A stretch of 64,000 nucleotides of DNA from Parcubacteria group bacterium (GTDB lineage Bacteria > Patescibacteriota > Minisyncoccia > Moranbacterales > UBA2206): assembly GCA_041659505.1 (NCBI GenBank), contig JBAZYF010000001.1:321719-385718 (forward strand), in the 5' to 3' direction. This document shows positions 6,140 through 35,517 of the stretch, piece after piece (the stretch's first letter is position 1; the number at the start of each line of letters is the position of its first letter). The position numbers were made by a program, and so were the translations under genes. The notes beneath the pieces were generated by a model. It had not been told where the DNA came from and ran no database searches. It worked only from the letters and a program-made list of their open reading frames with translations.

Positions 6140-6714
6140 ACTTTTTTCATTAATAATTTTGCGCGACTGATCCTAGTTGCCACTGTCCCCTGCGGTAGCT
6201 TTAAGATATCACCGATCTCTTCGTAGGATTTTTCTTCGATGCAATATAGCGCTAGCGGCTCGGAATAAGCCAGCGGGAGTTTGGCTAAACATTTTTCCAC
6301 CGCGGCGACAATTTCTTTTTGCGAATAATCTTTTTCCAAATCTTCCACGCTTTCAAAATCAAACTCTGGAAGCATCGGCAGTTCTTTTTGATATTTTTTC
6401 AAAACATTGAGCGCCTCGTTGTGCACGATGCGATAGATCCAGCTGGAAAATTTTTTCTTGAGATTAAACCCATTAAGATTAACAAAGGCGCTGATAAAAG
6501 CTTCCTGCACAACATCTTTGGCGCGGTGCTCATCTTTAACTAAATTATTAGCATAGCGCAAAAGCTTGGATTGATACCGCTCCATCAAGTACGCATAAAA
6601 TTCCTGATTTTCCAATCGAACTTTTTCCACAATCTCTTCATCGGTCAGTTTTTCAAAAGCGTTATTTTTGACAGCTTTATTTTGCATAATCTGATTATAG
6701 CAGAACTTACGCAT
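6121..6714 (-). CDS. RNA polymerase ECF-type sigma-70 factor
   Basis: Region 2 (YQSKLLRYA...DVVQEAFISAF...FSSWIYRIVHNEALN) and region 4 (LALYCIEEKSYEEIGDILKLPQGTVATRISRAKLLM) are recognisable. The annotated ATG lies inside the terminal repeat of element B1. The internal ATG at 6687 (MQNK...), preceded by TATAAT, is an alternative start. Confidence 0.75.
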   Translation of the reverse strand: MRKFCYNQIMQNKAVKNNAFEKLTDEEIVEKVRLENQEFYAYLMERYQSKLLRYANNLVKDEHRAKDVVQEAFISAFVNLNGFNLKKKFSSWIYRIVHNEALNVLKKYQKELPMLPEFDFESVEDLEKDYSQKEIVAAVEKCLAKLPLAYSEPLALYCIEEKSYEEIGDILKLPQGTVATRISRAKLLMKKVCQKNQ

Positions 6715-6879
6715 TCGCTCGAGTCAGCCGCATTTTCTAAAAAAATCTTGTCTGAGAATGCCTTTTTTCTTCAAAATTTTCCATTGGTTGCCGTCGATTG
6801 AGGGAAAATTTTGAAAAGAAAAAAGAGCGTTCGAGTTATTTTTTTAGAAAATACGGCTGTGAGGTGAAATGTATAAGTT
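6704..6879. repeat. Palindromic ~175-bp element, family B, copy 1 (abuts sigma-factor start)
   Basis: Near-identical to 35340-35517. Termini ACTTACGCATT...TTTTCTAAAAA / TTTTTAGAAAAT...ATAAGTT. Contains the internal palindrome TTCAAAATTTTCC / GGAAAATTTTGAA. Confidence 0.6.
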
Positions 6880-6937
6880 CTAAAAATATTAAGCTCCAGC
6901 AGAACTGGAGCTTAAATATAACTTGCCTCGTCAACGC

Positions 6938-7318
6938 TTAGCGATTTTGGCAATTCCCCATTCCCCTGCCGGCACCAGTACCATTTTTCAGTCCCAGTCC
7001 AAGTTCTGCGCGAATTTTTTGCGCTCCGGCTAAATCACCACTTTCTGCTAAACGATGCGCTTCGGCAAATCTCGCAAAATTGCTTTCATTCACAACTTGC
7101 ATCGCTCGACCGCGTCCCGCCATCAGACTTTTCCAAGCATTGTAATCATTATTTTTAAATGCTTCTAGCATTGCTTCGTGTCGCTCCTCCGAATAGTTAG
7201 GTCCCTTAACATTTGGATCGCCCTCGTATGCCTGCGAGCTATTAGCAAACGCCACTGCACCACCCAAAATAATTGCTAGCGCGCCTAATCCTATGATTGT
7301 TTTTTTCGTATTATTCAT
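6938..7318 (-). CDS. Small secreted or membrane-anchored hypothetical protein (126 aa)
   Basis: N-terminal hydrophobic signal/anchor (TIIGLGALAIILGGAVAFA). Nothing else recognisable. Confidence 0.45.
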   Translation of the reverse strand: MNNTKKTIIGLGALAIILGGAVAFANSSQAYEGDPNVKGPNYSEERHEAMLEAFKNNDYNAWKSLMAGRGRAMQVVNESNFARFAEAHRLAESGDLAGAQKIRAELGLGLKNGTGAGRGMGNCQNR

Positions 7319-7336
7319 ATAATTTTATTTGTTTAG

Positions 7337-7471
7337 GACTTACGCATTTGGCTGGGAAAAGTTCGCATGGTAATCTTTTTTAGCATCCTCAGGCTTTTGG
7401 TAAACCAGAGAGGGAAAACCAAGTTGCGGTAACCGTGCTTTCAGAATTTTTTCCAGGCAAATGCGTAAGTC
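7337..7471. repeat. Structured intergenic element, family A, copy 1
   Basis: Conserved ~75-nt core (TTTTTTAGCATCC.CAGG.CTTTTGGTAAACCAG..AGGGAAA.CCAA..TG.GG.AACCGTGCTTT.AGAAT) closed by a 25-bp inverted repeat (GACTTACGCATTTGGCTGGGAAAAG / TTTTTTCCAGGCAAATGCGTAAGTC). Confidence 0.6.
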
Positions 7472-7544
7472 CTATATTAGATTAATTAAGTTTATCGACC
7501 CTTCTAATATTAATACAATCTGAGATGCGTTTTTCTTTCACTTG

Positions 7545-7570
7545 CAAAAAAGCGCCCTTTTGAGGCGCTT
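7545..7570 (-). terminator. Rho-independent terminator after the DUF4340 gene
   Basis: AGCGCC-CTTTTGA-GGCGCT hairpin followed on the minus strand by TTTTTT. Confidence 0.7.
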
Positions 7571-7594
7571 TTAGACAAGTTAATCAGAAAAAAA

Positions 7595-8209
7595 CTAAAT
7601 GCTAGAAGATTTTGAGGTAGGAGTGGTTTTGGTTGGCGCATTGTTGGTAGGTGCGGTCTTGTCCGCACTTGCATCAGGAGCGGATTTTTGCCATTTGGTT
7701 GCGTCCCAAGTCAGTTTGTCTCGCAGGGCGCTTTCCACCAGATAGGTGTTTTTGATTCCGTCTTTTCGCATATAAAACTGGTTAGGCACACTGCTGGCTT
7801 TTCCCACTAGGAAAATATTGTCTTGGCCGTTTTTTGTGATGATCAGTTGAATAGCACTTGCACTGTCAACGCCAAATTTAGCTTGATTAGTTTCGGTTTG
7901 AGAAACCATTTCTCCGACTTTAAGACCCTTGAGTTCCGTAAAAAAGTCAGCCACTTTTTGAGCGTCTGCTTCATCATTGCCAATCAGCCATTTTCCGTCC
8001 TGGAAAGAAAGCGTTTTTTCCGCACTGGCATTTTTAATCACAATTTTCCCCACAGAACTTTCCGAGAAATCCGAAAAATTAAGACTGATATTTTTGGGCG
8101 CGCTGGCATCCTTGTTCCCATTAATCATCCGACCGACAAAAGGCAGGGCAACAATCACGGCCATGACAATAAAAACGCCTGTTAAAATTTTTAGCATTTG
8201 ATTATTCAT
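7595..8209 (-). CDS. DUF4340-like periplasmic protein associated with the GldG-type ABC system
   Basis: N-terminal TM anchor and position directly downstream of the GldFG-like gene. The C-terminus is a T/P/S-rich tail. Confidence 0.5.
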   Translation of the reverse strand: MNNQMLKILTGVFIVMAVIVALPFVGRMINGNKDASAPKNISLNFSDFSESSVGKIVIKNASAEKTLSFQDGKWLIGNDEADAQKVADFFTELKGLKVGEMVSQTETNQAKFGVDSASAIQLIITKNGQDNIFLVGKASSVPNQFYMRKDGIKNTYLVESALRDKLTWDATKWQKSAPDASADKTAPTNNAPTKTTPTSKSSSI

Positions 8210-8229
8210 AGTAAAAATAGGTTAATGAT

Positions 8230-10536
8230 TTAAGCTTCATAGACATCGTTTTTCCTTTTCTTTCGCCTCCAGAGACGCAGTGTGCCATAGCCGGAAACAG
8301 CGAGGAATACGAAAGCCAAGTTTCCGAATTTGATCAAATTGGGATCATCGCTATTGTCAAAAACCAATTTTCGCTCATCCAAATTTTTGATCTTTATATT
8401 CCCCAGCGAACTCTCTTGTCCGAGCCAAGAAAAAGTATCCAGCGCAAAAGACAGATTGGCTTGGCCATTTTGCAAAAACTGATCAGAAATGAAATTAGAA
8501 CTACCGACAACAATCACGTGCGACTGATTTTTATCTCCCGCTTTTGGTGCGAGGGCTAGAGCCAGTACCTTTTGCCCGAGTCCGCTCTGGCTGAATTTCT
8601 GGTTCGGTGTGATGTTAAATTGAGCCGATTGCGTCCCGCCATAAGCCGAGGAACTAAATAGATCAACCGCATCCCAACCCTTCCCATCAATCACGCCACT
8701 ATCCGCAGTCAAAGAACTGCTCCAAGGCAAAAGAATATTTTCCAGCTTAGTGGCAATCGGCAAAGAATTTTTATCCCTAATGGCTTGAATCCAAAATGGA
8801 TAGGGCAAAACAACCCGAGATTGTCCCGCTCCTCCAAAGCCAACCGCTTGATTGGATTTTAGATCATACACAAGATCTTTCCCCACTTCAACGCCCGTCT
8901 GTTCTTTAACAAAATCAGCCAGACTCTTTTCATTCACCGCCACACTCATATTCTCAGGAGAAATTGTCGTTCCATCAATCATAAAAAAGACGCTTCCGCC
9001 ATTGGCGATGAAATCTGCCACGGCTTTTTTTTCTTCATCGGAAAAATCCTGTGTCGGTCCGGCAATCACCAGCACCTTAAGACCTGTTGGGATAGAAAAA
9101 CTTTTGACCGGCGCGGGAGTACTCGTCGCGCTTTTGGTTTTATTCGCAGTTGTAGTGTCTTTGCTTGATGCGGCTGGTTCTGCTCCCGCCACCGCAACTG
9201 GTACAATTTCAAATTGCTTGGCTAATTCTTTTTGTAAAATTGTATAGTCACTAGCCAGCGCCTTCTCGCCATGCCCGGAAACAAATCCGACTTTCGGTTT
9301 ATTCTCCGCCGTCAATTCTTTGATAAAACTGGTCAGTTGGTATTCCAGATCATTGACATTCTGCACAAAAGGGATGCTCTCGTGCTTTCCGCCATAAGAA
9401 ACCGCCAGACCCAAGTAACCCTCATTGACTTGAAACTGCTCCTGAGAAACTACATTGAATTGCATCGGAGTTACGCCAAGAGACGCCGCTTCCTTGGCAA
9501 TTGCAGTGTCGCCCGACGGATTTTTATCGCTGACGTGAATATTGCCTTTGGAAAAAGCCTGATAGTCAGCCAAGATATCTTTCGTTTCTCGCAAGACTGG
9601 TTGCAACTGAGCCGGCAATTTATCGGAAGCATACAGCGTGACATTGACCACGTCCGGCAAATTCCCAGCGATGCCCCGCGTCGTGTCAGACAGTGTATAA
9701 ATTTTTTCCTCAGTCAGATCAAGCCGCCCAGGAATATTTACTCCGATAATATTCGAGAGGACAAAAATTCCCGCAAGCAAACTCACTGCTAATTTGATAT
9801 TGCGAAATGCGGACTTTCGGTTGCCATATTTATTTTTCACAAGTCCGAGATAGGCCAGACCAAGAAAAACCGCTGAGAGCGAAACGAAATACCACAGATC
9901 GCGCAAATCAATCACCCCGCGTGCCATTGAATTGAAATGGGTGGAAAGCGAAAGTTGTTCAAAAAAAGGCGCAAGCTCAAATGGCAATCTGGCGGTCATC
10001 AATTCCGTGCCGGAAATGATCAGAAAAAAACTGGCAATGATCGTTATGAGAAAAGCGGAAATCTGACTGGAAAAAAGACCGGAAATGACAATTCCAAGAC
10101 TCGCGAGAACCGACACAGCAAAAATACTGGCTAAATATTGACTGAAGATTTGTCCCCAATCGAGATTACCAAATTTGCCCAAACTCCAGGCGAGCGGAAA
10201 AATGAAAAGAAGGGTCAGGGCAAAAAAAATCACGATGCTCAAAAATTTTCCGATAATTAGCTGTGCTTGTTGCAAAGGATGAGTGAGCAAAAATTCCAAA
10301 GTGCCTTCACTTTTTTCCTCTGCGAGCGTTCCCATCGTAAGCGCCGGCACGATGATAAGCAATATCCAAGGCAAGATATCAAACAGCCCGCGCAGAGAAG
10401 CTTCGCCGACCAAAAAAACATTACGAAAAAAGAGAAATTCCCAGAGGAATAAAAAGGCCAGAATAATGATGTAGGCGGTCGGATTGTTAAAATAGTTCCG
10501 CAGTTCTTTTTTGATAATCGTTAGAATGTTTTTCAT
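8230..10536 (-). CDS. ABC-2 family permease fused to a GldG-like auxiliary domain
   Basis: The N-terminal ~240 aa form a multi-TM ABC-2 permease. The large extracytoplasmic domain ends in a C-terminal TM (AFVFLAVSGYGTLRLW). The gene sits downstream of an ABC ATPase. Confidence 0.65.
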   Translation of the reverse strand: MKNILTIIKKELRNYFNNPTAYIIILAFLFLWEFLFFRNVFLVGEASLRGLFDILPWILLIIVPALTMGTLAEEKSEGTLEFLLTHPLQQAQLIIGKFLSIVIFFALTLLFIFPLAWSLGKFGNLDWGQIFSQYLASIFAVSVLASLGIVISGLFSSQISAFLITIIASFFLIISGTELMTARLPFELAPFFEQLSLSTHFNSMARGVIDLRDLWYFVSLSAVFLGLAYLGLVKNKYGNRKSAFRNIKLAVSLLAGIFVLSNIIGVNIPGRLDLTEEKIYTLSDTTRGIAGNLPDVVNVTLYASDKLPAQLQPVLRETKDILADYQAFSKGNIHVSDKNPSGDTAIAKEAASLGVTPMQFNVVSQEQFQVNEGYLGLAVSYGGKHESIPFVQNVNDLEYQLTSFIKELTAENKPKVGFVSGHGEKALASDYTILQKELAKQFEIVPVAVAGAEPAASSKDTTTANKTKSATSTPAPVKSFSIPTGLKVLVIAGPTQDFSDEEKKAVADFIANGGSVFFMIDGTTISPENMSVAVNEKSLADFVKEQTGVEVGKDLVYDLKSNQAVGFGGAGQSRVVLPYPFWIQAIRDKNSLPIATKLENILLPWSSSLTADSGVIDGKGWDAVDLFSSSAYGGTQSAQFNITPNQKFSQSGLGQKVLALALAPKAGDKNQSHVIVVGSSNFISDQFLQNGQANLSFALDTFSWLGQESSLGNIKIKNLDERKLVFDNSDDPNLIKFGNLAFVFLAVSGYGTLRLWRRKKRKNDVYEA

Positions 10537-10590
10537 ACTGTTAAATAATAGTTAATAACATTTAAGCTTTGCTCTTGGTTGCTAGTAGGG

Positions 10591-10722
10591 CTTACACAAT
10601 CGCCAAAAAGTTGTTCGCACGTTCAACTTTTTTAGCATCCCAGGGCTTTTGGTAAACCAGCAAGGGAAAGCCAAAATGAGGAAACCGTGCTTTTGAGAAT
10701 GACTTTTTGGCGATTGTGTAAG
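10591..10722. repeat. Structured intergenic element, family A, copy 2
   Basis: Same core as copy 1, but the closing inverted repeat has a different sequence (CTTACACAATCGCCAAAAAG / CTTTTTGGCGATTGTGTAAG) that still pairs. That is stem covariation. Confidence 0.6.
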
Positions 10723-10745
10723 TCAGTTTGCCTAACAAAATAAAA

Positions 10746-11669
10746 CTAGGATTTAGTCAACACTTGGAAAATTTCTTCCAGTTTCTGTTCTTCTTCATGC
10801 AAATTCCAAACGATCCAATGATTTTCCCAGGTCAGCTTGGCAATATCTTTTTGCGCCGTATGCCCTTCTTCCAAAATCAACTTGCCTTCGATACGCTCAT
10901 TTTCTTTTTTAGTAACTTCCAGTTTTTTCAAATGCGCCAAAACACTGAGCCGCGCTTCAATTTCCCGGCCTTCCAGTTCGAAATTCAACACTTTTTCTTT
11001 TTGAGACAAGCGGGAAAGATCATCAGCTGTTCCATCGGCGACCAATTTTCCTTGGCTGATGATCAGGAGCCGACTGCAAACAGCCGAAGCCTCTTGCATC
11101 ACGTGAGTGCTAAGAATGATGGTGTGCTCTTTAGCTAAATCTTTGATCAACTGACGAATTTCTGCGCGCTGATTCGGATCCAAGCCTTCCGTCGGCTCGT
11201 CCATGATGATAATCTGCGGTTTGTGGATCAGTGCCGCCGCAATCCCCACCCGTTGCTTATAACCCTTAGAGAGCTCCCCAATCGGACGATGGAATACTTT
11301 TTCAATCCCGACCGCCTTCACAACAAACTCAAACGCTTCCGCTTTTTTCTCCGCCGCAATCTGATGCAGACTAGCGGCTAGATCCAGAAATTCCGCCACT
11401 TGCATATTTTTGTAGAGCGGATTGTTTTCCGGCAAGTACCCGATCTTTTTTTGCGCCGCGATTGAGTCTTTTTCGATATCCACTCCGTCAATCAAAATCT
11501 TACCTTTGTCCGAAGAGAGAAAACCGGTCAGCATCCGCATCGTCGTCGTCTTGCCGGCGCCGTTGGGTCCGAGAAATCCCAACACTTCGCCAGAATGAAT
11601 CTCGAAGGACAAATTATCTACCGCTTTCACACTACCAAATTTCTTGGTCAGATTCTCGACTTTGATCAT
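10746..11669 (-). CDS. ABC transporter ATP-binding protein (GldA-like)
   Basis: Walker A GPNGAGKTT, signature LSKGYKQRVGIAAAL and Walker B IIIMDEPTEGLD. Confidence 0.85.
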   Translation of the reverse strand: MIKVENLTKKFGSVKAVDNLSFEIHSGEVLGFLGPNGAGKTTTMRMLTGFLSSDKGKILIDGVDIEKDSIAAQKKIGYLPENNPLYKNMQVAEFLDLAASLHQIAAEKKAEAFEFVVKAVGIEKVFHRPIGELSKGYKQRVGIAAALIHKPQIIIMDEPTEGLDPNQRAEIRQLIKDLAKEHTIILSTHVMQEASAVCSRLLIISQGKLVADGTADDLSRLSQKEKVLNFELEGREIEARLSVLAHLKKLEVTKKENERIEGKLILEEGHTAQKDIAKLTWENHWIVWNLHEEEQKLEEIFQVLTKS

Positions 11670-11784
11670 AGGTTTGTTTTTGACTGATTATTGATTTAAA
11701 AAAGTTGGCGTTCGGAAGACCAGACCACCAACTCTTATTTTATAAAACTGAGTTTTCTTGTCAAGTAAGGCCAGTTTGACAAAT

Positions 11785-12285
11785 TCAAAAACGCTTCTGT
11801 CGGATATGGCAATAGGGTTCGTGTCCATTTTTGGCATAATATTTTTGGTGATAGCTTTCTGCCTCCCAAAAAGTTCCAGCCTTTTCCAGTTTCGTCACCA
11901 CGACATACCCTTTTACCTTGAGCAAACCGATCAGTTTTTCTGCAATGGATTTTTGCTCAGCATCCACGTAAAAAACAGCTGAACGATATTGCTCGCCGAT
12001 GTCCGGTCCCTGGCGATTAAGTTCAGTCGGGTCATGAATTTCGAAAAATAGCCGTGTCAACTGTTCATAGCTTGTCAGCGAGCTATCAAAAGTAACCTCT
12101 AGAGTTTCTGCATGACCGGTTTTTTTGGCTGAAACTTCCTCATAGGTCGGATTCTCCTTGAATCCGCCCATATAACCGACTTTAGTCAAAATGACTCCGG
12201 GCAGATTTTGGAAATAGTACTCCACACCCCAAAAGCAACCGCCGGCGAAATAGGCTTTTTGAATTTTGTTGTTATTATTTTTCAT
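11785..12285 (-). CDS. msrA: Peptide methionine sulfoxide reductase MsrA
   Basis: GGCFWG active-site motif. The likely start is the ATG at 12285 ([20 protein letters not shown]). The ORF-track start at 12318 is a GTG inside msrB. Confidence 0.85.
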
Positions 12286-13511: not shown

Positions 13512-13583
13512 TTGATTTGTGAACAGACATCATCCCCCTAGCTTTACTCCTTACAATTTTTTTTGAACGAAGTTAGAATTTAT

Positions 13584-14561: not shown

Positions 14562-14562
14562 G

Positions 14563-14636
14563 AGATGTGGGCAGGATTTGAACCTGCGTATTTTGCTCTG
14601 CAAGCAAATGCCTAAGCCAAGCTCGGCCACCACACC
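14563..14636 (-). tRNA. tRNA-Cys(GCA)
   Basis: Reverse complement is GGTGTGGTGGCCGAGCTTGGCTTAGGCATTTGCTTGCAGAGCAAAATACGCAGGTTCAAATCCTGCCCACATCT. The anticodon loop TTGCAGA gives GCA, and the U73 discriminator is typical of Cys. Confidence 0.7.
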
Positions 14637-14686
14637 GGAAACAATTTAAATAGTCAAATAGTGCCATGTTGAAAAAACAAGAAAAC

Positions 14687-14774
14687 TGGCGGAAGAGGGG
14701 GGATTCGAACCCCCGGTACCTTGCGGCACACACGCTTTCCAAGCGTGCCGTTTAAACCACTCACGCACCCTTCC
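14687..14774 (-). tRNA. tRNA-Ser(GGA), CCA encoded
   Basis: Reverse complement is GGAAGGGTGCGTGAGTGGTTTAAACGGCACGCTTGGAAAGCGTGTGTGCCGCAAGGTACCGGGGGTTCGAATCCCCCCTCTTCCGCCA. Anticodon loop TTGGAAA, with a long variable arm. Confidence 0.8.
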
Positions 14775-17927: not shown

Positions 17928-17934
17928 TAGAAGT

Positions 17935-22903: not shown

Positions 22904-23105
22904 TGTCATTCCCGCGACCGCGTGCTGCCTTAGCTTTAGCGGTGGAGCAAGGCGGGAATCCAGGTTTCACTAGTTGTAAACTCTAGAAAATTAAGTTGCA
23001 AGTGTAATAAACTTTATATATCAGTCAGTCTTGAATTTTAATAATTCGCTTCTTCTCAACTTTTAGCCTGAGGTGCCTGGATTCCCGCCTTCGCGGGAAT
23101 GACAC
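22904..23105. repeat. Terminal-inverted-repeat element, family C, copy 1 (with a 30-nt insertion in the 5' hairpin)
   Basis: GTGTCATTCCCGCG...GCGGGAATCCAGG at the 5' end is the exact reverse complement of the 3' end CCTGGATTCCCGCCTTCGCGGGAATGACAC. The interior is conserved across the three copies. Confidence 0.65.
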
Positions 23106-23107
23106 GT

Positions 23108-25960: not shown

Positions 25961-26709
25961 TTTGTCATACAGCTTTTGGCCTGTGCTTCAATTGCACAAC
26001 TTTTAGCTTGTGTTTCATTGGAAATAATTTTTCCATCTTCCATGTTGATGATCCTTGTTCCGAAACAATATTGACTTGGATTGTGCGTAACCATCACAAC
26101 CGTGAGACCAAATTGTTTGTTGATATCTTCAATCAGCTTCATTAATTCATCCCCCGCTTTATGATCAAGATTGCCCGTCGGTTCATCAGCAATAATCAAT
26201 TGCGGATCAAGCAAGAGCGAGCGAGCCAGGGCGATACGTTGTTGTTGCCCTCCGGAAAGATCATACGGCCGGTGATTAGCCCACTTGCTCATACCCACGA
26301 GCTCAATCAGTTTGGCCGCTTTTGGGATCGATTCGTGAAAAGAAGCGCCAGCGATAACGGCAGGGATAGTGATATTTTCAATGACTGAAAGCGATTTGAT
26401 CCAAAAAGCTTGCTGAGGAATGAAACCGATATTTTTATTGCGAAAATGGGCGCGCCAGTCTTTGGAATAGCTCCAAATATCTTTGCCATCAATAATAATT
26501 TTGCCTTCCGTCGGCGGTTCCAATCCATAGATCGAATGGAGCAAGGTAGACTTTCCGCAACCAGACGGACCGATGAGCAGACAAAACTCTCCCTTCATTA
26601 TCTCAAAATCCAAACCAAAAAGAATGGGGATAACATTTTCACCAACCCGAAATTCCTTTTTTATATTCTCCACTCTAATTTTTACTTCGCCCATAAATTT
26701 GACATCCAA
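25957..26709 (-). CDS. ABC transporter ATP-binding protein, MacB/LolD-like
   Basis: GPSGCGKST, LSGGQQQRIALARSL and IIADEPTGNLD. Confidence 0.85.
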   Translation of the reverse strand: MDVKFMGEVKIRVENIKKEFRVGENVIPILFGLDFEIMKGEFCLLIGPSGCGKSTLLHSIYGLEPPTEGKIIIDGKDIWSYSKDWRAHFRNKNIGFIPQQAFWIKSLSVIENITIPAVIAGASFHESIPKAAKLIELVGMSKWANHRPYDLSGGQQQRIALARSLLLDPQLIIADEPTGNLDHKAGDELMKLIEDINKQFGLTVVMVTHNPSQYCFGTRIINMEDGKIISNETQAKSCAIEAQAKSCMTK

Positions 26710-29700
26710 CCGAAACGCGACGCAAACGTTCCCGTGATCACTTCAGTCGCGCTCGCTTTAGCTTTCTCTACTACCACGCTGGTAATTTCAGTTTTCGTTA
26801 AGTTACCCACTGCGTCATAACACTCTGCTTCATAACTATATACCTGTCCTGGTTCGGCTGGAATAGTGATGAGGTGATAGGTATTAAGACCATCACTGGA
26901 AACGGTTTGCTCTAAAGTTGAAGTGACTACTCCTTTGGCATATTTAACTTTGACATTCGTTTCCTCATCGGTTTCTATCTTGATGTATACATTGGCTTGT
27001 GAGTTATTGCCTCGTCCCAGCACCTTTCCCAGTGAGCGATTAGTGACAACTTTTGGCGGACGGGAATCAGATTTAGTGGTGATTTTTTGCTCCAGAGGCG
27101 TAATATTGATTCCATTGTCATCGGTGCCAGTGATGGACAGGGTATACTCCTTAGCGGGATCAAGCCCTTCAATTCTTGCTTCATGCTCAGTCACTTTTTC
27201 GGAAGTGAGAAATGTGTGCGGGGAGCTTTCTTCGCTACTTTTGAAATAAACCAAGGTGGTGGTGGGGACGTTTGTCAGATATCTGATAACGATTGTCGGT
27301 AAATCGACATTTTCTTCGTTCTGGACGGTTACATCACTAGCTGTTGGCTGTTTCGGAGTAACAAAGGTGTATTCATCGGAAGAAAATTCATTCAAATCAG
27401 CATCGACGCAAGAAATTTTGAGTGTGTACGTGCTATCAGCGGAAAGATTATTTATCCGTTGCACATGACTTGCTCCGCCCGACTCTTCCTTATTCGTGCC
27501 CGCTCCATAGCTAAGCGTGCAGGCGGCGCTGACATTAGTTTCCCAGGAAACGATCGCTTCATTGAGCACAATGTTAGTAATCAGCACCTCAGAAATTGTC
27601 GGCGGTGGAAGAGTGATAAAATTTAGTATATCAGACATACCGATATTACCGTCCGGATCAATATACTTCACACGATAAAAATATTTTGTTCCGGCCGAAA
27701 GGCCTGTGACATCAACCATGTGATCGGTGAGGGAGTCAACTTGTCCATTGGTCTTGCCAAAACTGGACGATGTGCCATATTCCACAAATGAACTGGCTAC
27801 ACGATTAGTCGCCCAAGTAAAGTTAGCCGCGAACGATTGGACAGTTACTTTTGGCACACCAACCAGAGTTGGCGCTGTAGTATAGCGACCAGTTGGAGTT
27901 AAAGAAACAATACTAGTCGGGATAGAATAATTATTAGTCTTATCTTTTGATTTGACATAATAGTAGTACAATTTACTTTCTAGGTTAGTGTCTACGAAAG
28001 CTGAACCAGTCGTCATCGCAATTTCATCACCAAAATTAATTCCGTCATCTGAGCGAAAAATAGCATAACCGGCAAAATTCCCTTCATCATAAGTTGTCGG
28101 AGCGCTCCATTTGAGCGCTATGCTATATTCCGCAGCTTCACGATCCGATGTGTCAAAAGCCTGAGCATTAAGCGGAGGACCAGGCGCAGTTGTTCTCGCG
28201 TAAAAAAACACATCTGCCGGATGCTCCCAATCCACATCGTCTGGATTAGTCTTTGATCCGCCCTCACTCATCGCTACGATATGGAAAGTATTTTTCCCAA
28301 ATTGCGTAGCAAACGGTCCAGGACCAGCTGATGTAGCCGTTGTTTCTACGGTATTAAAAGGCGTAGGATCATAATTAACGGAATAAAAGTAAGTGATCTT
28401 ACTAGAATCGCCCGCATAAGATTCGGGAATATGCCAAGTGAAAGTAAAATTATTGGTCACATTATCTTCATTGCTCGGGTTGACTTCAAGCCCAATCGGT
28501 TTGGATGCGGCGCCCCCGCTCCAGAAAAAATACTTAGCCCCAGAAACAGTTTCATTACCAGCGACATCTAAAACTTTTAGATAAAATTCATTTTCATTTG
28601 GCTGATAGGGCTCCACTATCTGAGAAAGTGTCCCCAATTCCGTAAGTTCATGCCAAGTATCAGGAGTTTCGTTGCCTAGTCTGTACTGAAATCGATCTAT
28701 TCCCGATTGATCATCTTCCGCATCATCCAACCAAGACCAAGTGAATTTACTAGAGGAAGAATAACTGCTTGGATTGGCAGAAATGTTGGTCGGCAAGGTC
28801 GGCGCTGTTTTATCAAGCTGATAAATAAACCCTGTATAACTTTCCGATGGCAGCCCGACGTTGTCTACGGCTGCTATTTTTAAATAATATTTTTTTCCAC
28901 TATCTGTTGGAAGGAGCGTCGGAGCGGAAAAGGTGTTCCCCTCTTGAAAATCACCGTTTGCAATCGCATCAGGGCACTCTTCTTCCGTACCAAAGCAAAC
29001 ATAATATCCGGAGATTCCCGAGCCACCCGGATTCGGATTATCGCTAGCGCCATTCGCTTCTCCCGCCACCGGCCATTCAAAATAAGGCGTATCATATCCA
29101 TACCAATTTTGGCCGGTTGGATACTCCTCATCAGTAACATTTGTAATGATTACTCGAGGATCTTCCGCGGAAGTTGCTTCCTTGCTATAAGCTGTTACCG
29201 CAGAGGGACTATTTGGTTGCTCGATATCTTGATAGTAATAGATAGAAAAATCATCCACCCGAGGAGAAAAGATCTGATCGGCAGAAGCAAAGCCGATCCG
29301 AACTTGAATATATTGCCTGGGATCAGAGTTTATATTGAACACGTGACGATTGCCATAAACATGCTCATTGGATACTGGCGTCCAAGTTGACCAATCAGCT
29401 TCATCTTCCGGCAAAAGAGAACCGCTCTCGGATGTTCTGGTTTCAAAAGTTAAAAAGTTATTAACTTCATCAGGCAACGTATAATCGATAGAGATATTTC
29501 CCCATCTGTACACTGAATTATGCGTGTCAATAACACCGGAAACATAATTACCAGTCTTCGAAAAACCGACCTGATTGGCGCTTGAACTAACAACGTAGTT
29601 AAAAAGTCCGTCTTGAAAAGAACTGTAAGTATAGGTAGCATTTCCGGAAGTAATCCAGTTTCGATTGGAAACGTTTGTTCCCGATCCTCCGGTAGTGACC

Positions 29701-32700
29701 ACTGCCGGAACCTTACTGGTAGTGTTATTTAAATTTTCCCAAGTATAAACCGGGCCGGTTTGTGAGGCATTGAAACGGTAATATTCATTACCCGTAGCTA
29801 CATTTCCCCCTCCGCGTGTCACATAAATATAGCCATCTCCACCATCCATCATAGCTGACCCAGCTCCAGCCGCCCCAGGAAGCGGACCAATATTGGTCCA
29901 GCCCGTCCCAAACTTATAACGATAGACACTTGTACTACTACCACCTTGTGTCTTATATATATATTCATTATCACTTGCGTCTTTGTAGTATAAAATTTTT
30001 GATCCATCGTTGGAATTACAACTGCCCGTGCCAGTCATAGCCAACCAGACCGGAGTATCTGTTTCCTTTGTGTCATATTTCCACCAAACAGTATTGGCGC
30101 CTCCTTGAGTCAGATAAATATATCTTGAACCGTCATAAGTCATCGATGAACCGGTGGCTATTTGAAGACTAGGTAGATTACTCAAAACATTCGACCAGGA
30201 ATTTTTGTTTACATCATAACGGAAAAAATATGGACTCTTGGTATCTGTCCGACGCGTTCTCAGACCGCCGGGAACATAATAAATAGAGCCACCCTCCAAA
30301 CTTCCATCTACATAGGCGGCGCTGGCTCCATTAAACGCTCCCACCGGTAGCCGAGCTAATTCATTCGAAGCTCCTGTGGAAACGTCATATTTTTCAAAAG
30401 TATTATCATAGCCACCACGAAACATATAGAGATTCCTACTGTCGTCATCAACCGTAAAAGCGCCGTTAGTGAAGGGAAAGAAAGAATCAACATTATTATT
30501 GTTCCCTTTCGGAATTTCTGGACCAAATAGGCCCCTTTGCGGTGTCTCCCAACTGTTCTCGGCAACATTAAACCGGTAAAAAAGATTGGTATTGCCACCA
30601 CGCATAAAATAAATATACCCATCATATGCAACTAGCGATGCTCCGGGATATGCCACCAGACTCGGAGCGTCGGGAAGATTAGACCAATCATCGGTTTTAA
30701 TATCGTACTTCAAAAAAGACTGATGGAAATTATTATACGCAGCGTTATTTCCTGTAATGGCATAAATTGAATCAGTTTCACTATCATAGGTCAGACTTCC
30801 ACCGTTATAAAATCCTTCCGGCGCCGGAGTAAGTGGCGTCCAAGTATTTTTTACCTCTCCATAATCTGCGTCATTACCAAAAGAATACTTGGCAAAATAG
30901 GAATACTGATTTCCCTGAATCACATACATATTGTTACGTTCGTCATAAACAGAATCCCCACCTTCTCCGGTAAACTGTCCGCTGGCCGCATCATAAGGAT
31001 TGCCAAAATCGGCATTTTCAATGGACGCCGGGCTGTAGGGGTTTTTCCACCCTCCGGTGCATCCGCTCACTCCATTACAGGTATCATAAATCAAAAGGAC
31101 ATCATCTGTTCCTGGCATAGCATAAATATAACGCGAACCATCATAAGTCAGATTACTTCCCGCCGCAAAAGATTTGGGAGCGTTCCCCAATTCCACCCAG
31201 GAATTATTAAGAATATTATAAGTCCAAAAAGCCGCCGCGTTAACGACAACCTCATTGCCCGCTCCTCGAGTCGCATAAAGATACCCTTCGGGACCCTCCA
31301 CGAGCGAACCACCCGTATTGGAGTTGTAGGGAGTCGTGGCTCTGGTTGTCCAAGTGTCCGTTTCAATTTCGTAGCGGTAAAAAATTTTTAAATTATTCCC
31401 TGCCATTGTATAGAGGCAATGATTGTCATTGAACTGATATGGCGGCTCGACGTCAGTGTCATCTTTGCACCTGCCCAGCGCCAATTCTCCTCCACCATAA
31501 ACATTACCCAAGAGAGTGCTTAAACGATTTTGATTCCAAAAACCAGAGACAGGACTTAATTTCAATGATGCCGCGTCCCCCGTACCAAAAACAGCTACGT
31601 CAGAAGAAGACCCTCCGCTAGTGAAATCATTCGTGCTCGTTACTACGCTATGCAAAGGATCCACGCCTGTAGCAGTGGAAACACCGGCATAATTATACAC
31701 AAAAGCATCCCAAATTTCATTCGCCATCTTGCCTTCATTATCTTTTGTTTTTATTTTCAAATGATAATCTCCCGTTGAAAGTGGCGTATTGGCCAAATAA
31801 GTCGCACCGGATTGGAATGACCAATTACTGCCTGTCACCGGTTCGGAACAATTACTATCACTGTCAAAACAAACATAATATCCATTAATGCCAGATCCAT
31901 TATCAGTCATTCCTAACCAAGAAAAATAAGGATGTTCATAGGGATAACCCTCGCTATATTCTGATTCTATGGCAAATCCTCCTACTTGCTGGGAATATCC
32001 CTGAAGACTTGATGGGTTAGTCGGCACTTGGCTGTTGTGATTATAGGAAAACGTGTAGTCATAAACAGTAGGCGTGTTCTGTCCGTCTGTCGAAACAAAA
32101 TTTATCTTAATTTTGATATATCTTCGGGTTCCCTCCGATGAAGAGATGTCTGCCGTCAAAAGGCCATCCTCCTCTTGTGCGTTATCCACTTCGTGCCAGT
32201 TACTACTATTGGTTTCGTCCGGCCAGTTGGCATTATCCGCATCAGTCATGGTCGAGAAAGTTATTCCGGTATTAAGTGGGATATCCACATTAGCGCTGAT
32301 ACCCTCCCAACTGGAAACCGTCGAGAGATCCATCGCCTGGCTGATGTACGTACCCGCTGATACTGATGAATTAACAAAATTGTGAGCACCTATTTGAAAA
32401 TGTCGCATGGAAGTCTGATCCTGAGCAGTTCCATAATTTCCTATTAGGGCATACAAAGAGCTTCCTCCTGAATATTCTATGTTGGCTCCTTGCCACACCC
32501 CTCGACCAAAAGTATATTTTTCGGTCGCCGGCAGTTTTCGCCAGGAATTATTGGAAATATCATATTCCCAAATTTCATCTTTGTAATATCCCGCTAGCGC
32601 GTAAATCTTACCGGCAAAGTAAGTCATAGTTGTTCCGTAATATTGAGCAAACGGAGTTGAGGCCAGCTTACTCCATACCCAAGAACCGGTAGAATTGGAA

Positions 32701-34709
32701 TACTTCAAGAAAGTCGTTTCCCCGTCTCCCAAAGTCAGATAGATATCGGTGCTGTTGACTTCTTCGCTAAAATATGTTCCTGGTGAAACCATCCGAGCGC
32801 CAACATTAGCAAAATACGCGACGCCTCCAACAACAATATCATTAGTCGCGCCACTAATACGAGCACAAGCAGAAAAACTAGTACCACAATCATAGAAGTA
32901 ACTTGAAATCGGGCTAGCTCCTCCGCCCGGCATTACATAATAATGACTGCCATTATAAATTATTCCTCCGCCATTCCCAACTGTCGGCATTCCAGTGGGA
33001 ACAGAAGAACCCCAACTCCCCGGAGCAGCTTGAGTAGTATCAAAAGTATAAACGGATGTTCCGCGCGGATAATATATAACTCCGGAAACCTCGTTAATTG
33101 TTCCGGTTGCATCAGCTGTTACGCTCGCTATTGATCCTCGCGTAATCCAGTCATTTTGCGAAACATCGTATTCATTGAAATAAACCGAATTGCCAGAAAC
33201 GGCGAAAACAGAGCTATCCTCCGCAACTGTCTTGCCATTCCAAATCAGATCGCCACCTGTTCCCACAGCCCTTAAGGTACCGGCTCCGTCCTGGACTTGC
33301 TCCGGACCGACCCATTGATGACCAATTGCTCCGCTTGGGTCATATTTCCAAAGATCAGTCGTTGCCGCACTTCCATTGCTGGCTCTTATGACATAAATAT
33401 TTTTATCCGTTTCATTGTAAGTCAAAGAAGAATAATTATTGTTTCCGGGAGCATTATCCACTGTAAACCAAGTATTTTTTTGTCCCGGACAAGTGCCGTC
33501 TGACCCATCATCACAAGTAATCTGATAGCGATAGAAGGTGGCCGTGTTAGTGGAACGCAAAAAGAAGAGACTTTTGGCGTGGCCCGCTCCTCCGCCATCC
33601 CAATAGACTCCCTTTTGCTCCCCATTAAAGTTAGCTAGAGTATTTGCCATTAGCTCCCAACTGCCCATATCATCATCCGTCGCGGGAATTAAAAAACGAT
33701 AAAAACTTGCAGTATTGCTTCCCCGAATTGCATAAAGATATCCATCATGACCATAGACAAGATCCCCTCCGGTATTAACGGTGGCTGGTGAAGTTATGCC
33801 GGATAAGTTTTGCCAATAAGGATCATCGGCATTTACATGATATTTATAAAAGTCACCGCTGGCATTTCCCCGTAAAAAATAAACGTCCGCACCGTCAGTT
33901 TCGATAGATGATCCATAGTAAGTAGAATCCCGCAAATCCGGAAGCTGTTTCCAACTTTGAGTCGCAATATTGAATTCATAAAATTTTTGTAAATATCCCC
34001 CAAAAATAGCATATATTTTCCCCGTTCCTTCGGTTGCGCCGGGAATAAAAGTCATATCAGCACCATAATTGGCGGGAAAAGGAAGATCCGGCAATGTTTC
34101 CCAGCGATCATTTACTGTGTCATAACGCCAAAATTCTTTATCCGCATATCCTCGCATAACATATAAATAGTTCCAGGCCATCTTGGAAGCACTGCCAAAA
34201 TATATTGTGTCCGGCGGAGCCGCCCACAGCCTAGCATCCCAGCTCCCCTGTGGCGCTAGCTGAATAGCATCTTGGCTAGTATTAGTGGTTACGCCGGTCA
34301 ATGACCCTAACTCCCAATCAAACGCAGAAGTCACTGTTTTGAATTGGGGTGAGGCGAGAATCGTTGGGATAATTCCGCCCAAAAAGACAAAAATTACAAA
34401 AGTAACAGTTAGGCGCAAAGTGGTTTTTGAAGCAAAAAGGATAATTTTAGTAAAGATCTTCTTTATATAACCAAAGATCGCTACCCATTTGCGCCGACGA
34501 AGATAGCTTTTCCCCAGGCTATGCTTGGAAGCCAAGTCATAATCTTGCAAAAATCCGCCCAGGCTTTCTTGGGTGATGAGAATTTTTTTCTTCCGTCTGC
34601 GCCTGCTTTCCAGATGAAAAAAGGTGAAAAATTTTCCCCACAAAAACGCCGTCTTTTTTTGAGAATATCTGGAAAGTCTATTTTTTTTATGTTTGGTCAG
34701 GTTGATCAA
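26682..34709 (-). CDS. Giant (2675 aa) membrane-anchored surface protein with repeated Kelch-type beta-propeller motifs and fibronectin-III-like domains
   Basis: N-terminal TM (VTFVIFVFLGGIIPTILA), dozens of Y-x-x-R/G-G...W-x-x-L repeats (YVMRGYADKEFWRYDTVNDRWETLPDLP and similar) and FN3-like blocks toward the C-terminus. The stop overlaps the ABC ATPase start. Confidence 0.75.
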   Translation of the reverse strand: MINLTKHKKNRLSRYSQKKTAFLWGKFFTFFHLESRRRRKKKILITQESLGGFLQDYDLASKHSLGKSYLRRRKWVAIFGYIKKIFTKIILFASKTTLRLTVTFVIFVFLGGIIPTILASPQFKTVTSAFDWELGSLTGVTTNTSQDAIQLAPQGSWDARLWAAPPDTIYFGSASKMAWNYLYVMRGYADKEFWRYDTVNDRWETLPDLPFPANYGADMTFIPGATEGTGKIYAIFGGYLQKFYEFNIATQSWKQLPDLRDSTYYGSSIETDGADVYFLRGNASGDFYKYHVNADDPYWQNLSGITSPATVNTGGDLVYGHDGYLYAIRGSNTASFYRFLIPATDDDMGSWELMANTLANFNGEQKGVYWDGGGAGHAKSLFFLRSTNTATFYRYQITCDDGSDGTCPGQKNTWFTVDNAPGNNNYSSLTYNETDKNIYVIRASNGSAATTDLWKYDPSGAIGHQWVGPEQVQDGAGTLRAVGTGGDLIWNGKTVAEDSSVFAVSGNSVYFNEYDVSQNDWITRGSIASVTADATGTINEVSGVIYYPRGTSVYTFDTTQAAPGSWGSSVPTGMPTVGNGGGIIYNGSHYYVMPGGGASPISSYFYDCGTSFSACARISGATNDIVVGGVAYFANVGARMVSPGTYFSEEVNSTDIYLTLGDGETTFLKYSNSTGSWVWSKLASTPFAQYYGTTMTYFAGKIYALAGYYKDEIWEYDISNNSWRKLPATEKYTFGRGVWQGANIEYSGGSSLYALIGNYGTAQDQTSMRHFQIGAHNFVNSSVSAGTYISQAMDLSTVSSWEGISANVDIPLNTGITFSTMTDADNANWPDETNSSNWHEVDNAQEEDGLLTADISSSEGTRRYIKIKINFVSTDGQNTPTVYDYTFSYNHNSQVPTNPSSLQGYSQQVGGFAIESEYSEGYPYEHPYFSWLGMTDNGSGINGYYVCFDSDSNCSEPVTGSNWSFQSGATYLANTPLSTGDYHLKIKTKDNEGKMANEIWDAFVYNYAGVSTATGVDPLHSVVTSTNDFTSGGSSSDVAVFGTGDAASLKLSPVSGFWNQNRLSTLLGNVYGGGELALGRCKDDTDVEPPYQFNDNHCLYTMAGNNLKIFYRYEIETDTWTTRATTPYNSNTGGSLVEGPEGYLYATRGAGNEVVVNAAAFWTYNILNNSWVELGNAPKSFAAGSNLTYDGSRYIYAMPGTDDVLLIYDTCNGVSGCTGGWKNPYSPASIENADFGNPYDAASGQFTGEGGDSVYDERNNMYVIQGNQYSYFAKYSFGNDADYGEVKNTWTPLTPAPEGFYNGGSLTYDSETDSIYAITGNNAAYNNFHQSFLKYDIKTDDWSNLPDAPSLVAYPGASLVAYDGYIYFMRGGNTNLFYRFNVAENSWETPQRGLFGPEIPKGNNNNVDSFFPFTNGAFTVDDDSRNLYMFRGGYDNTFEKYDVSTGASNELARLPVGAFNGASAAYVDGSLEGGSIYYVPGGLRTRRTDTKSPYFFRYDVNKNSWSNVLSNLPSLQIATGSSMTYDGSRYIYLTQGGANTVWWKYDTKETDTPVWLAMTGTGSCNSNDGSKILYYKDASDNEYIYKTQGGSSTSVYRYKFGTGWTNIGPLPGAAGAGSAMMDGGDGYIYVTRGGGNVATGNEYYRFNASQTGPVYTWENLNNTTSKVPAVVTTGGSGTNVSNRNWITSGNATYTYSSFQDGLFNYVVSSSANQVGFSKTGNYVSGVIDTHNSVYRWGNISIDYTLPDEVNNFLTFETRTSESGSLLPEDEADWSTWTPVSNEHVYGNRHVFNINSDPRQYIQVRIGFASADQIFSPRVDDFSIYYYQDIEQPNSPSAVTAYSKEATSAEDPRVIITNVTDEEYPTGQNWYGYDTPYFEWPVAGEANGASDNPNPGGSGISGYYVCFGTEEECPDAIANGDFQEGNTFSAPTLLPTDSGKKYYLKIAAVDNVGLPSESYTGFIYQLDKTAPTLPTNISANPSSYSSSSKFTWSWLDDAEDDQSGIDRFQYRLGNETPDTWHELTELGTLSQIVEPYQPNENEFYLKVLDVAGNETVSGAKYFFWSGGAASKPIGLEVNPSNEDNVTNNFTFTWHIPESYAGDSSKITYFYSVNYDPTPFNTVETTATSAGPGPFATQFGKNTFHIVAMSEGGSKTNPDDVDWEHPADVFFYARTTAPGPPLNAQAFDTSDREAAEYSIALKWSAPTTYDEGNFAGYAIFRSDDGINFGDEIAMTTGSAFVDTNLESKLYYYYVKSKDKTNNYSIPTSIVSLTPTGRYTTAPTLVGVPKVTVQSFAANFTWATNRVASSFVEYGTSSSFGKTNGQVDSLTDHMVDVTGLSAGTKYFYRVKYIDPDGNIGMSDILNFITLPPPTISEVLITNIVLNEAIVSWETNVSAACTLSYGAGTNKEESGGASHVQRINNLSADSTYTLKISCVDADLNEFSSDEYTFVTPKQPTASDVTVQNEENVDLPTIVIRYLTNVPTTTLVYFKSSEESSPHTFLTSEKVTEHEARIEGLDPAKEYTLSITGTDDNGINITPLEQKITTKSDSRPPKVVTNRSLGKVLGRGNNSQANVYIKIETDEETNVKVKYAKGVVTSTLEQTVSSDGLNTYHLITIPAEPGQVYSYEAECYDAVGNLTKTEITSVVVEKAKASATEVITGTFASRFGWMSNLWAK

Positions 34710-34881
34710 CTTTTTTTATTTTTACATTTTTTAACACACCGCGATGACTTGCATTTTTGCAAGTTTGCCAAAAATTCTATATAAATAAATACAAAAAAAC
34801 ATTTGGTTTTTTCGCCATTTATCACTCTAATTATTATACCATAAAATTTATTAAAAAAAAGCAGCCCGTCAAATATAAACC

Positions 34882-34907
34882 AAGCCCCGGAAATATTTCC
34901 GGGGCTT
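34882..34907 (-). terminator. Terminator-like hairpin after the response-regulator gene
   Basis: Perfect 9-bp stem AAGCCCCGG-AAATATTT-CCGGGGCTT, followed on the minus strand by a GGTTTATATTT T-rich tract. Confidence 0.5.
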
Positions 34908-34946
34908 GTGAAAAAAAGTTGGAATGTTTCAGAAAAACAAGAAACG

Positions 34947-35330
34947 TTAATCACTGACAATTTCCTTCACCCGCTCAATAATTTGCGCCATTTTCCACTC
35001 TGCTTTGAGCATATATTCTTGGATACCCAATTTTTTCGCCTCTTCAATTTTATGCATATCGCTGATATTGGTCAGTAAAATCACAGGAACATTATTCCCC
35101 CACGCATCATGCCTTAATTTTTCCAGCATCTCAAGGCCGTCCATGTTAGGCATGGCGATATCCAGAAGAATCACCAATGGGTGAATTTCTAATGCCTTCT
35201 CTAATCCTTCTGCGCCATCTTTGGCGAGTGCGACGGAAAACCCGGAAGTGCCGAACTTATCGCTCAAAATTTCTCGCATATCCTCTTCGTCATCAACGAT
35301 GAGAATTTTTCTTTCTTTGTCGTTTGCCAT
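34947..35330 (-). CDS. Single-domain response-regulator receiver (CheY-like)
   Basis: ILIVDDEEDMREI...ILLDIAMPNMDG...PVILLT receiver blocks. The probable ATG is at 35330; the track's GTG start is at 35339. Confidence 0.8.
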   Translation of the reverse strand: MANDKERKILIVDDEEDMREILSDKFGTSGFSVALAKDGAEGLEKALEIHPLVILLDIAMPNMDGLEMLEKLRHDAWGNNVPVILLTNISDMHKIEEAKKLGIQEYMLKAEWKMAQIIERVKEIVSD

Positions 35331-35339
35331 TTTATTCAC

Positions 35340-35517
35340 GACTTACGCATTTACCCGAGTCAACTGTATTTTCTAAAAAAACGTGTCTGAGAATGCCTTT
35401 TTTCTTCAAAATTTTCCACTGGTTGCCTTTGATAGAGGGAAAATTTTGAAAAGAAAAAAGAGCGTTCGAGTTATTTTTTTAGAAAATACGGTTGCGAGGT
35501 AAGACGCGTAAATCCTA
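35340..35517. repeat. Palindromic ~175-bp element, family B, copy 2 (abuts response-regulator start)
   Basis: About 90% identical to copy 1 over ~170 bp. Confidence 0.6.

Follow-up and report, generated by a model that had tools for sequence, protein, structure and literature searches.

By comparing a 64,000-nucleotide stretch of DNA from a Parcubacteria group bacterium (GenBank assembly GCA_041659505.1, contig JBAZYF010000001.1, positions 321,719 to 385,718; here called the window) with related genomic and metagenomic loci, we arrived at a probability of about 0.8 that two similar palindromes beside regulator genes, B1 (6704-6879) and B2 (35340-35517), are copies of one non-autonomous, non-coding mobile element of Moranbacteria-type bacteria of the candidate phyla radiation (CPR), comparable to the miniature inverted-repeat transposable elements, or MITEs, of the ERIC and Correia sort. 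The element, here family B, would consist of two layers, namely a hairpin core of about 100 nt and outer arms that end in (TA)GGACTTACGCRT inverted termini. B2 was inserted into a kinase-regulator operon, at a gap of 16-19 nt, and B1 immediately upstream of a -10 box that was already present at an apparently leaderless sigma factor gene. Movement presumably depended on a transposase supplied in trans, which would recognise the common termini and probably duplicate TA, and the copies may be co-transcribed with their neighbours as a long hairpin. Effects on the two regulators would then be a side effect of insertion: B1 would have displaced the former sequence upstream of the -10 box and left a TGn extended -10, and B2 would have placed a hairpin of roughly -60 kcal/mol between kinase and regulator. 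Both regulators would have been hit by chance, without forming a regulon.

Two copies of one palindromic element

B1 and B2 were 91.3% identical over 161 nt (6705-6865 against 35341-35500, blastn), and a repeat search of the window gave 88% identity over 153 nt. A pattern drawn from their common core matched the window only at B1 and B2 and had no match in 100 shuffles. Each copy, 176-178 nt in size, is an imperfect palindrome; folded as RNA, B1 gave -61.6 kcal/mol (z = -8.7) on the minus strand and -69.3 kcal/mol (z = -9.7) on the plus strand, which carries the G/T-rich apical loop and is antisense to the adjoining genes. The sequence ACTTACGCAT starts at 6705 in B1 and at 35341 in B2, and it also bounds a second family in the window, family A, with copies A1 and A2 (7338 on the plus strand and 7461-7470 on the minus strand). 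An earlier interpretation of the window from its letters (the sequence-only reading) had described B1 and B2 as near-identical palindromes that have a terminus in common with family A, and both statements were borne out, ACTTACGCAT being present in B1, in B2 and at both family A ends.

Filled and empty orthologous sites

Orthologous kinase-regulator operons, with kinases 64-71% identical, keep the gene order beta-lactamase-like gene, kinase, regulator and giant Kelch/fn3 protein. In them only 16-19 nt separate the regulator ATG from the kinase stop, against 202 nt in the window. On alignment with three such empty operons, B2 stood out as a single clean block with conserved flanks. Short-read contigs that carry the kinase (Logan contigs L183 and L184; loci outside the window are labelled L) break off inside B2, some 70 nt beyond the stop codon of the kinase, as at a repeat.

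The B1 site was compared in four orthologous loci (L187, L188, L189 and L190) that hold the 126-aa gene, the sigma factor gene and an anti-sigma gene. In L187, whose sigma factor is 91% identical, the site is empty: the stop codon and a terminator hairpin are followed by AATATTTTTCTAGGCTATAATCATATTATG, and in the window B1 sits between AATATTTT and GCTATAAT. In L190 an A2-like element (2350-2483) lies a few nucleotides from the B1 site, with the junction again reading ...GTAAGTTCTGATATAAT. In L188 and L189 the termini are the same (GAGACTTACGCG...CGCGTAAGTCCTG) but enclose a third interior; this element lies between stop codon and terminator, and the promoter-proximal site of both loci holds no element. 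Three lineages were independently hit in the spacer upstream of the sigma gene. Two of the insertions directly adjoin the -10 box, with a TGn extended -10 left behind, a possible reason why insertion at that spot is tolerated. The orthologous site of A1 is also empty in L188 and L189, with a single TA there and TA on both sides of A1 in the window. Among the 11 class I copies defined below, TA flanks were present on the 5' side in 9 and on the 3' side in 5, the other 6 having TG on that side.

With the orthologous sites empty, these comparisons show B1 and B2 to be insertions into short intergenic spacers. The MITE alternative of the sequence-only reading is thereby supported, by the empty sites of B1, B2 and A1 and by termini that are common to at least three other cargo types. 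In the syntenic loci L093 and L163 the element copies are 95.7% identical and lie in adjacent but different spacers, and the flanking genes are 77-82% identical. We rejected this as a clean empty-site pair, since the spacers have diverged and the Y|Z spacer of L093 holds another palindrome.

Core, arms and termini

All copies had a core of about 100 nt, which on the gene-sense strand runs from AACTCGAAC through a 22-bp helix to the apical loop CCCTCAATCRACGGCAACCAATGG and back through the helix to TTCTCAAACAG. Three CTCRA motifs, all unpaired and on one strand, were invariant, divergent copies included. Outside the core the arms varied by subfamily. Class I comprised B1, B2 and nine other copies, with arms ending in (TA)GGAGTTACGC...GCGTAAGTCC(TA); class II, found in most other genomes, had arms of the AGAATAAAATTTTTT type followed by 4-20 bp of copy-specific sequence that was complementary between the two sides. 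The core at L158:2452-2552 was 94% identical to that of B1, but stood inside class II arms.

The (TA)GGACTTACGCRT sequence occurred at both ends of the 11 class I copies, of A1 and A2, of the cargos in L188/L189 and L190 and of an element at L187:3679-3813. At least four different interiors carry these termini, as seen in the window (7334-7474 and 10586-10722), L190:2350-2483, L188:2238-2436 and L187:3679-3813. We infer from this arrangement that class I is a family-B core nested in a carrier whose termini are common to family A.

Nesting of elements was common. A GC-rich mini-hairpin (CCCGCCTCGCCGGCGAGGCGG and variants) was nested in the family-B copies L084:4805-4947, L165:6977-7122, L165:4473-4620 and L045:1756-1865, on either side of the core. 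Palindromes that we call family E (L031:2417-2566, L031:4939-5087 and L093:3522-3629) had the basal motifs of family B, AAATTTCRCTYGCA...CAGTGAAA, with a different apex, and one spacer held different elements in two loci, namely an E copy in L093 and a B copy in the syntenic L163.

Copies outside the window

At least about 37 family-B copies were found in Moranbacteria metagenome-assembled genomes (MAGs) and metagenomes with one genome and one metagenome pattern scan. The genome scan pattern, AAAATTTTCC-N14-26-GGAAAATTTT, was unspecific, and among at least 120 matches listed 9 loci proved real by blastn. The named genome records with copies were four Candidatus Moranbacteria/Moraniibacteriota MAGs, the unclassified MAG AM_bin-0953 (at least three copies) and one MAG labelled Bdellovibrionales. 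Two B and two A copies were present in the window, and locus L165 (13 kb) contained two to three B copies. From 30 copies a covariance model (R1) was built, which scored true copies at 90-136 bits, found only B1 and B2 in the window and added a few divergent copies in which the search pattern is missing, such as those at L165:4473-4620 and L045:1756-1865. Judged by these hits, the family is widespread across Moranbacteria. Close relatives occur in the JGI samples Ga0172379/Ga0172380 and Ga0268283.

The hairpin has a GC content of 30%, and no open reading frame (ORF) was conserved through the family-B alignments. A small ORF starting at the loop-edge ATG (MENFEEKRHSQTRFF) was rejected, since that ATG is not conserved (missing in 7 of 30 aligned copies), and the alignments thus show the family to be non-coding. 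With Rfam 15 only tRNAs scored above the gathering score in the window, and the elements in five related loci had no match; a sensitive Rfam scan of the elements gave only look-alikes of plant-miRNA hairpins (20-33 bits against cut-offs of 60-140). Collections of phages, plasmids and viral contigs contained no family-B match. In a full-text search of the published literature we found no description of MITE- or REP-like intergenic repeats in CPR/Patescibacteria genomes, and the family seems to be undescribed.

Possible selection on the core

Several observations weigh against a plain MITE. Between B1 and B2 none of 68 positions differed in the core stems and internal loops; the apical loop had differences at 4 of 20 positions, and the arms including the termini at 19 of 88. 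A core that is better conserved than the termini is the reverse of a classical MITE and suggests that the core has a role of its own; the same core inside unrelated arms, as in L158, is likewise the reverse of what a classical MITE shows. The strand with the G/T-rich loop was antisense to the genes at 16 independent co-directional loci and sense at 2 (binomial p about 0.001, with crude ORF calls), a bias that is not expected of passive junk. In the orthologous copies of L001 and L103 both arms had changed in step, which points to a hairpin maintained in place. Additionally, no long element with these termini (an inverted pair 0.6-3 kb apart) was present in the 1.3 Mb examined, where the only long pair combined B1's left end with A1's right end, and none of the 20 window ORFs examined matched a transposase family, Y1 included. 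Finally, the filled and empty pairs of B1, B2 and A1 differ by small indels, which obscure any exact target-site duplication.

One explanation of these features is that the core is a functional structured RNA, carried by mobile arms and acting in cis in mRNAs, for example as a processing or stability signal for a double-strand-specific RNase or as a protein-binding hairpin with three CUCRA loops on display. Its integrity would be preserved by selection on the host or the element. This explanation is compatible with a mobile element and adds a function to it. The core helix was 98.8% paired with a double-sided change at 10 of its 22 pairs, and its covariation score was 0.361, compared with 0.125 when shuffled and at most 0.142 with partners slid; the copies are related, however, and the shuffle controls overstate the significance. 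The stronger conservation of the core than of the arms, the element copies of L093 and L163 that are more alike than their flanking genes, the invariance of the same-strand motifs and the orientation bias all fit such a role. B2 lies within an operon and is hence almost certainly transcribed, and co-transcribed MITEs that alter mRNA stability are known (PMC3184786).

However, the covariation was almost wholly from one Watson-Crick pair to another, with no one-sided (G-U) intermediates at 20 of the 22 pairs, and few evolutionary events would also fit this pattern. Such double changes are equally consistent with maintenance of the palindrome at the DNA level and with selection on RNA; template-switch correction is an example of DNA-level maintenance. 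The better-folding strand is antisense to the genes, and the Rfam searches gave no match. A functional RNA core is held as a tentative addition to the mobile-element explanation.

The two strands of the hairpin differ in how well they fold. Over 31 copies the mean minimum free energy was -64.1 kcal/mol for the G/T-rich (plus) strand and -57.9 kcal/mol for the other strand, the corresponding folds contained 216 and 70 G-U pairs, and the arm alignments had 74 and 42 wobble positions. The apical stem formed only on the G/T-rich strand, in 25 of 25 loop variants. We rejected wobble pairs as a guide to the functional strand, since the copies are not independent, the pairs come mostly from one G/T-rich loop and the result conflicts with the direction of transcription. 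An intrinsic terminator working in one orientation was also rejected as the cause of the bias: on neither strand does a U-run come directly after a stem, the U7 tract is paired with an A7 tract and the terminator scan was negative.

The strand asymmetry could be read as the mark of independent small RNA genes, present in many copies, expressed from the G/T-rich strand and antisense to their neighbours; the better folding of that strand, its excess of G-U pairs and its apical stem are what such genes would have. We consider this hardly credible, as no conserved promoter or terminator was found outside the hairpin, the flanks are unrelated between copies and no terminator-like site is present on the G/T-rich strand at B1 or B2. 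Both copies are demonstrably insertions, and the G-U excess comes largely from one conserved G/T-rich loop and counts as a single observation.

Movement as single-stranded DNA would accommodate some of the same facts. The mobilising enzyme, for instance a recombinase specific for hairpins (HUH/RAYT-like or other), would then recognise the core hairpin itself. The arms would be carried along or derived from the target, and the orientation bias would come about through the direction of replication. What is conserved as a unit is the core, not the termini; different arms surround the same core, and the class II flanks are copy-specific and inverted, not direct. The motifs are strand-specific, as are the wobble positions in the arms and the apical-loop variants; elements are nested in one another, one site can hold different cores, and the window copies are all oriented alike in a replichore whose GC skew is uniform. 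However, no Y1/HUH or other candidate enzyme was seen among the ORFs examined and the Pfam annotations of the orthologous loci, and the better-folding C-rich plus strand would be the leading-strand template, not the strand exposed in IS200/IS605-type transposition. The ordinary conserved inverted termini of class I with their TA flanks point to a DDE-type mechanism, and 176 nt is far above the size of a REP hairpin. We regard this mode of movement as unlikely.

A further reading takes the core for a strand-specific structured module and not for passive cargo; as RNA or as single-stranded DNA it would itself be the selected unit, better conserved across Moranbacteria than the transposon termini, and would show its three CTCRA loops to a binding partner. 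The repeated nesting of the core in different palindromic carriers and a hairpin kept by coordinated changes of both arms would agree with this, and we put it forward as a possibility of about the same weight as the structured RNA. If the core is functional, it would be a CPR-specific structured element with a strand and a binding partner that can be tested; if it is the selected module, it would represent either an RNA element of CPR bacteria that acts in cis and is new, or a new way in which DNA is moved by targeting a hairpin.

Position relative to genes and the promoter question

According to the sequence-only reading, B1 and B2 might be mobile promoter or operator cassettes through which the response regulator and the sigma factor are controlled in common. 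The distance from the end of each copy to the start codon of a regulator is indeed only 9-16 nt, the junction reads TGnTATAAT both at B1 and at the unrelated insertion in L190, TATAAT follows within 10 nt after several class I copies, and Correia elements are a precedent for promoter-bearing MITEs (PMC3184786). However, the TATAAT beside B1 is host sequence: the -10 box and its 6-nt spacing to the ATG are already there in the empty L187 and in L188. No -35/-10 match was found on the gene (minus) strand at 6600-7000 and 35250-35650 in a scan that used only the sigma-70 consensus, so that neither B1 nor B2 holds a gene-strand promoter of the sigma-70 type. B2 is in an operon spacer, where a promoter is unneeded, and orthologous regulators occur in relatives without the element.

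The other family-B copies adjoin unrelated housekeeping genes, encoding RuvB, PolA, RecJ, a GTPase, a sigma factor (3' side), IMPDH, UvrB, Pth, FTHFS and HypD. Arranged by neighbouring genes, the independent loci were co-directional in 18 cases, divergent in 5 and convergent in 3, and in L158 the 3'-3' spacer of converging genes, 141 nt long, is taken up entirely by the element. Copies between convergent genes have nothing to promote and argue against a promoter role, as the sequence-only reading had said of copies at 3' positions. The elements mostly occupy nearly the entire spacer; at co-directional loci the core edge was 57-90 nt from the upstream stop codon in most cases (127 nt at B1) and 67-184 nt from the downstream start. 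Abutment on start codons needs no further cause, because any insertion in a compact genome would produce it. Shared control of the two regulators is not supported, and promoter cassettes appear very improbable. The suggestion that the elements land preferentially upstream of genes keeps some truth in the triple, independent hit of the sigma-proximal spacer.

Genes and other features of the window

The genes adjoining B1 and B2 are all on the minus strand (Table 1). B1 lies between the 126-aa gene, which has its own terminator hairpin, and the gene of an extracytoplasmic function (ECF)-type sigma factor that is conserved across Parcubacteria-type CPR lineages. B2 lies between the histidine kinase stop (35533) and the response-regulator ATG, and its end is 9 nt from this ATG, in agreement with the closeness noted in the sequence-only reading.

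Table 1. Coordinates of the family-B and family-A copies and of the adjoining features in the window.
Feature	Position	Strand	Basis or remark
B1, class I family-B copy	6704..6879		R1 136 bits; no counterpart at the orthologous L187 site
B1 conserved core (inner 22-bp helix, two internal-loop motifs, apical loop)	6742..6842		Common to copies with unrelated arms; covariation
B1 apical 20-nt asymmetric loop, ATTGGTTGCCGTCGATTGAG	6783..6802	+	Kept in 25 variants across about 37 copies
B1 outer arm, sigma-gene side, terminus (A)ACTTACGCATTCGC	6704..6741
B1 outer arm, far side, degenerate terminus GAAATGTATAAGTT	6843..6879
B2, class I family-B copy	35340..35517	As B1	R1 131 bits; spacer of 16-19 nt in orthologous operons
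B2 conserved core	35377..35477		Repeat alignment and B1/B2 comparison
A1, family A element, same termini (TAGGACTTACGCAT...ATGCGTAAGTCCTA), different interior	7334..7474		Empty orthologous site in L188/L189
A2, family A element, 78% identical to A1	10586..10722		A2-like copy at the B1 site in L190
Gene of the ECF-type sigma factor (188 aa), starting at ATG 6687	6121..6687	-	P0121, Sigma70_r2/r4; orthologue alignment
TGCTATAAT, extended -10-like box 6 nt before sigma ATG	6694..6702	-	GCTATAAT is host sequence; T of TG from B1 end
Intrinsic-terminator-like hairpin of the 126-aa gene	6889..6915	-	Host sequence; in all orthologous loci
126-aa gene upstream of B1	6938-7318	-
Response regulator gene, start ATG 35330	34947..35330	-	Same start in orthologues
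Histidine kinase gene upstream of B2	35533..37524	-

The sigma gene had been said to start within the B1 terminus, with a TATAAT just downstream. The ATG at 6714 in the terminus is, however, the start of the longest ORF only; the protein is publicly annotated with 188 aa, which corresponds to ATG 6687, and the orthologous loci align from the same ATG. This start is 16 nt beyond the end of B1, with TGCTATAAT intervening, so that the TATAAT does adjoin the element, as host sequence. The equivalent -10 region reads GGCTATAAT in the empty site of L187 and AGCTATAAT in L188, and the context TATAAT-CAKATT-ATG is kept in the orthologous sigma loci. Similarly, GTG 35339 in the B2 terminus is an extension of the regulator gene by the ORF finder.

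In all four lineages (window, L187, L188 and L190) TATAAT stands exactly 6 nt before the sigma ATG, and no Shine-Dalgarno-like sequence is present; this spacing suggests that the sigma transcript is leaderless. The response regulator also lacks a Shine-Dalgarno sequence, at filled and empty sites alike. The sigma factor of L187 was called with 217 aa by JGI, overlapping the upstream gene, though no element is present at that site. Directly downstream of the regulator, in a position kept in the orthologous loci, is the giant Kelch/fn3-repeat protein (ORF of up to 2,675 aa, 26682-34709).

The window has a GC content of 40.8% and a uniformly negative GC skew on the plus strand. In a crude ORF map 40 of 54 ORFs were on the minus strand, and the median gap between ORFs was 121 nt, repeat-inflated gaps included. 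Two tRNA clusters, of three genes (5272-5544) and two genes (14563-14774), are also on the minus strand.

At least four families of palindromic repeats were found in the 64 kb. Family C consists of three repeats of about 172 nt (22935-23106, 57647-57817 and 63639-63810; 80-82% identical) with 30-nt termini, GTGTCATTCCCGCGAAGGCGGGAATCCAGG, that were also found in the unrelated loci L137:4759-4939, L106:4806-4832, L154/L171 and L058. Family D is represented by a 188-nt palindrome (40939-41126) with arms of the GGGAGAAGG/CCTTCTCCC type and a fragment at 57006-57049, with relatives at L001:4716-4839 and L158:7108-7171. Additionally, three head-to-tail 32-nt units, CGAAGGCGGACTGCGCCACGCCGTAGCCCAAG, were observed at 43026-43130 (also at 44948-44988), overlapping a small ORF (42923-43177), and four similar terminator-like hairpins, AAAAAGGGAAnnGC...GCnnTTCCCTTT, at 41934, 49241, 54061 and 56204.

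CPR/Patescibacteria genomes are streamlined and about 1 Mb in size. Such repeats break short-read assemblies, and they lead ORF callers to prolong genes into the ends of elements, of which the sigma ORF from 6714 and the GTG of the regulator are examples; alternative starts and repeat-rich spacers confuse assembly and gene calling in these genomes, and the repeats can mislead the inference of regulons, as in the sequence-only reading. With B1 abutting the -10 box of a conserved sigma factor and the B2 hairpin parting a kinase from its regulator, the two insertions offer natural regulatory perturbations that could be compared with empty-site relatives.

Comparison with known element classes

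Like MITEs, the family-B elements are shorter than about 600 bp, are non-coding, have common terminal inverted repeats and show presence/absence polymorphism at orthologous sites, namely for B2 against three operons, for B1 against L187, for A1 against L188/L189 and between L093 and L163. An autonomous insertion sequence with the same termini and a transposase was not seen in the 1.3 Mb and the 20 window ORFs examined.

The repetitive extragenic palindromes (REP) and their composites (BIME, REPIN), which are mobilised by RAYT, resemble family B as intergenic hairpins that often follow right after stop codons and are biased in orientation (PMC3184786, PMC3116915). They are recognised as single-strand hairpins, and BIMEs may hold a central site for integration host factor (IHF) between inverted units (PMC3184786, PMC3116915). 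However, REPs, which are GC-rich, are 20-40 nt long with GTAG or CGTC tags (PMC3733652), and family B is a single AT-rich hairpin of about 140-180 nt without such end tags. No RAYT gene was seen, nor a Y1 transposase among the window ORFs examined. Integron attC sites were rejected, since the R''/R' motifs (RYYYAAC ... GTTRRRY) are not at the hairpin base on either consensus strand and the neighbours are housekeeping genes, not cassettes.

The Correia elements of Neisseria (CREE/NEMIS) are MITEs of 100-160 bp with inverted termini next to TA, are often near gene starts or 3' ends and are co-transcribed, as family B would be. They have a central protein-binding (IHF) site between the arms, and promoters may be contained in them or arise where they join the flank (PMC3184786). 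It is their 26-bp termini that are conserved and contain promoter signals, whereas in family B the centre is conserved and no promoter was detected. The family-B loop resembles the IHF consensus only loosely. Likenesses of the loop to the IHF consensus, to a K-turn (tandem G-A) and to a GCCGTC like the Neisseria DNA uptake sequence were considered and rejected, as the defining motif was not present in the alignments.

The ERIC or IRU elements of Enterobacteriaceae reportedly have a conserved central inverted repeat, as Hulton is said to have described in 1991. They are imperfect palindromes of about 127 bp that are classed as MITEs, and like family B they are long, lie in transcribed intergenic regions and have copies conserved across species. 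They also have TA at both termini (PMC3184786), are non-coding and have no known partner transposase. Family B differs from ERIC in having no sequence similarity to it and in belonging to a different phylum (CPR/Moranbacteria), and it is set apart by a core that occurs in at least two unrelated sets of arms, by three CTCRA motifs on the same strand and by a 16:2 bias in orientation.

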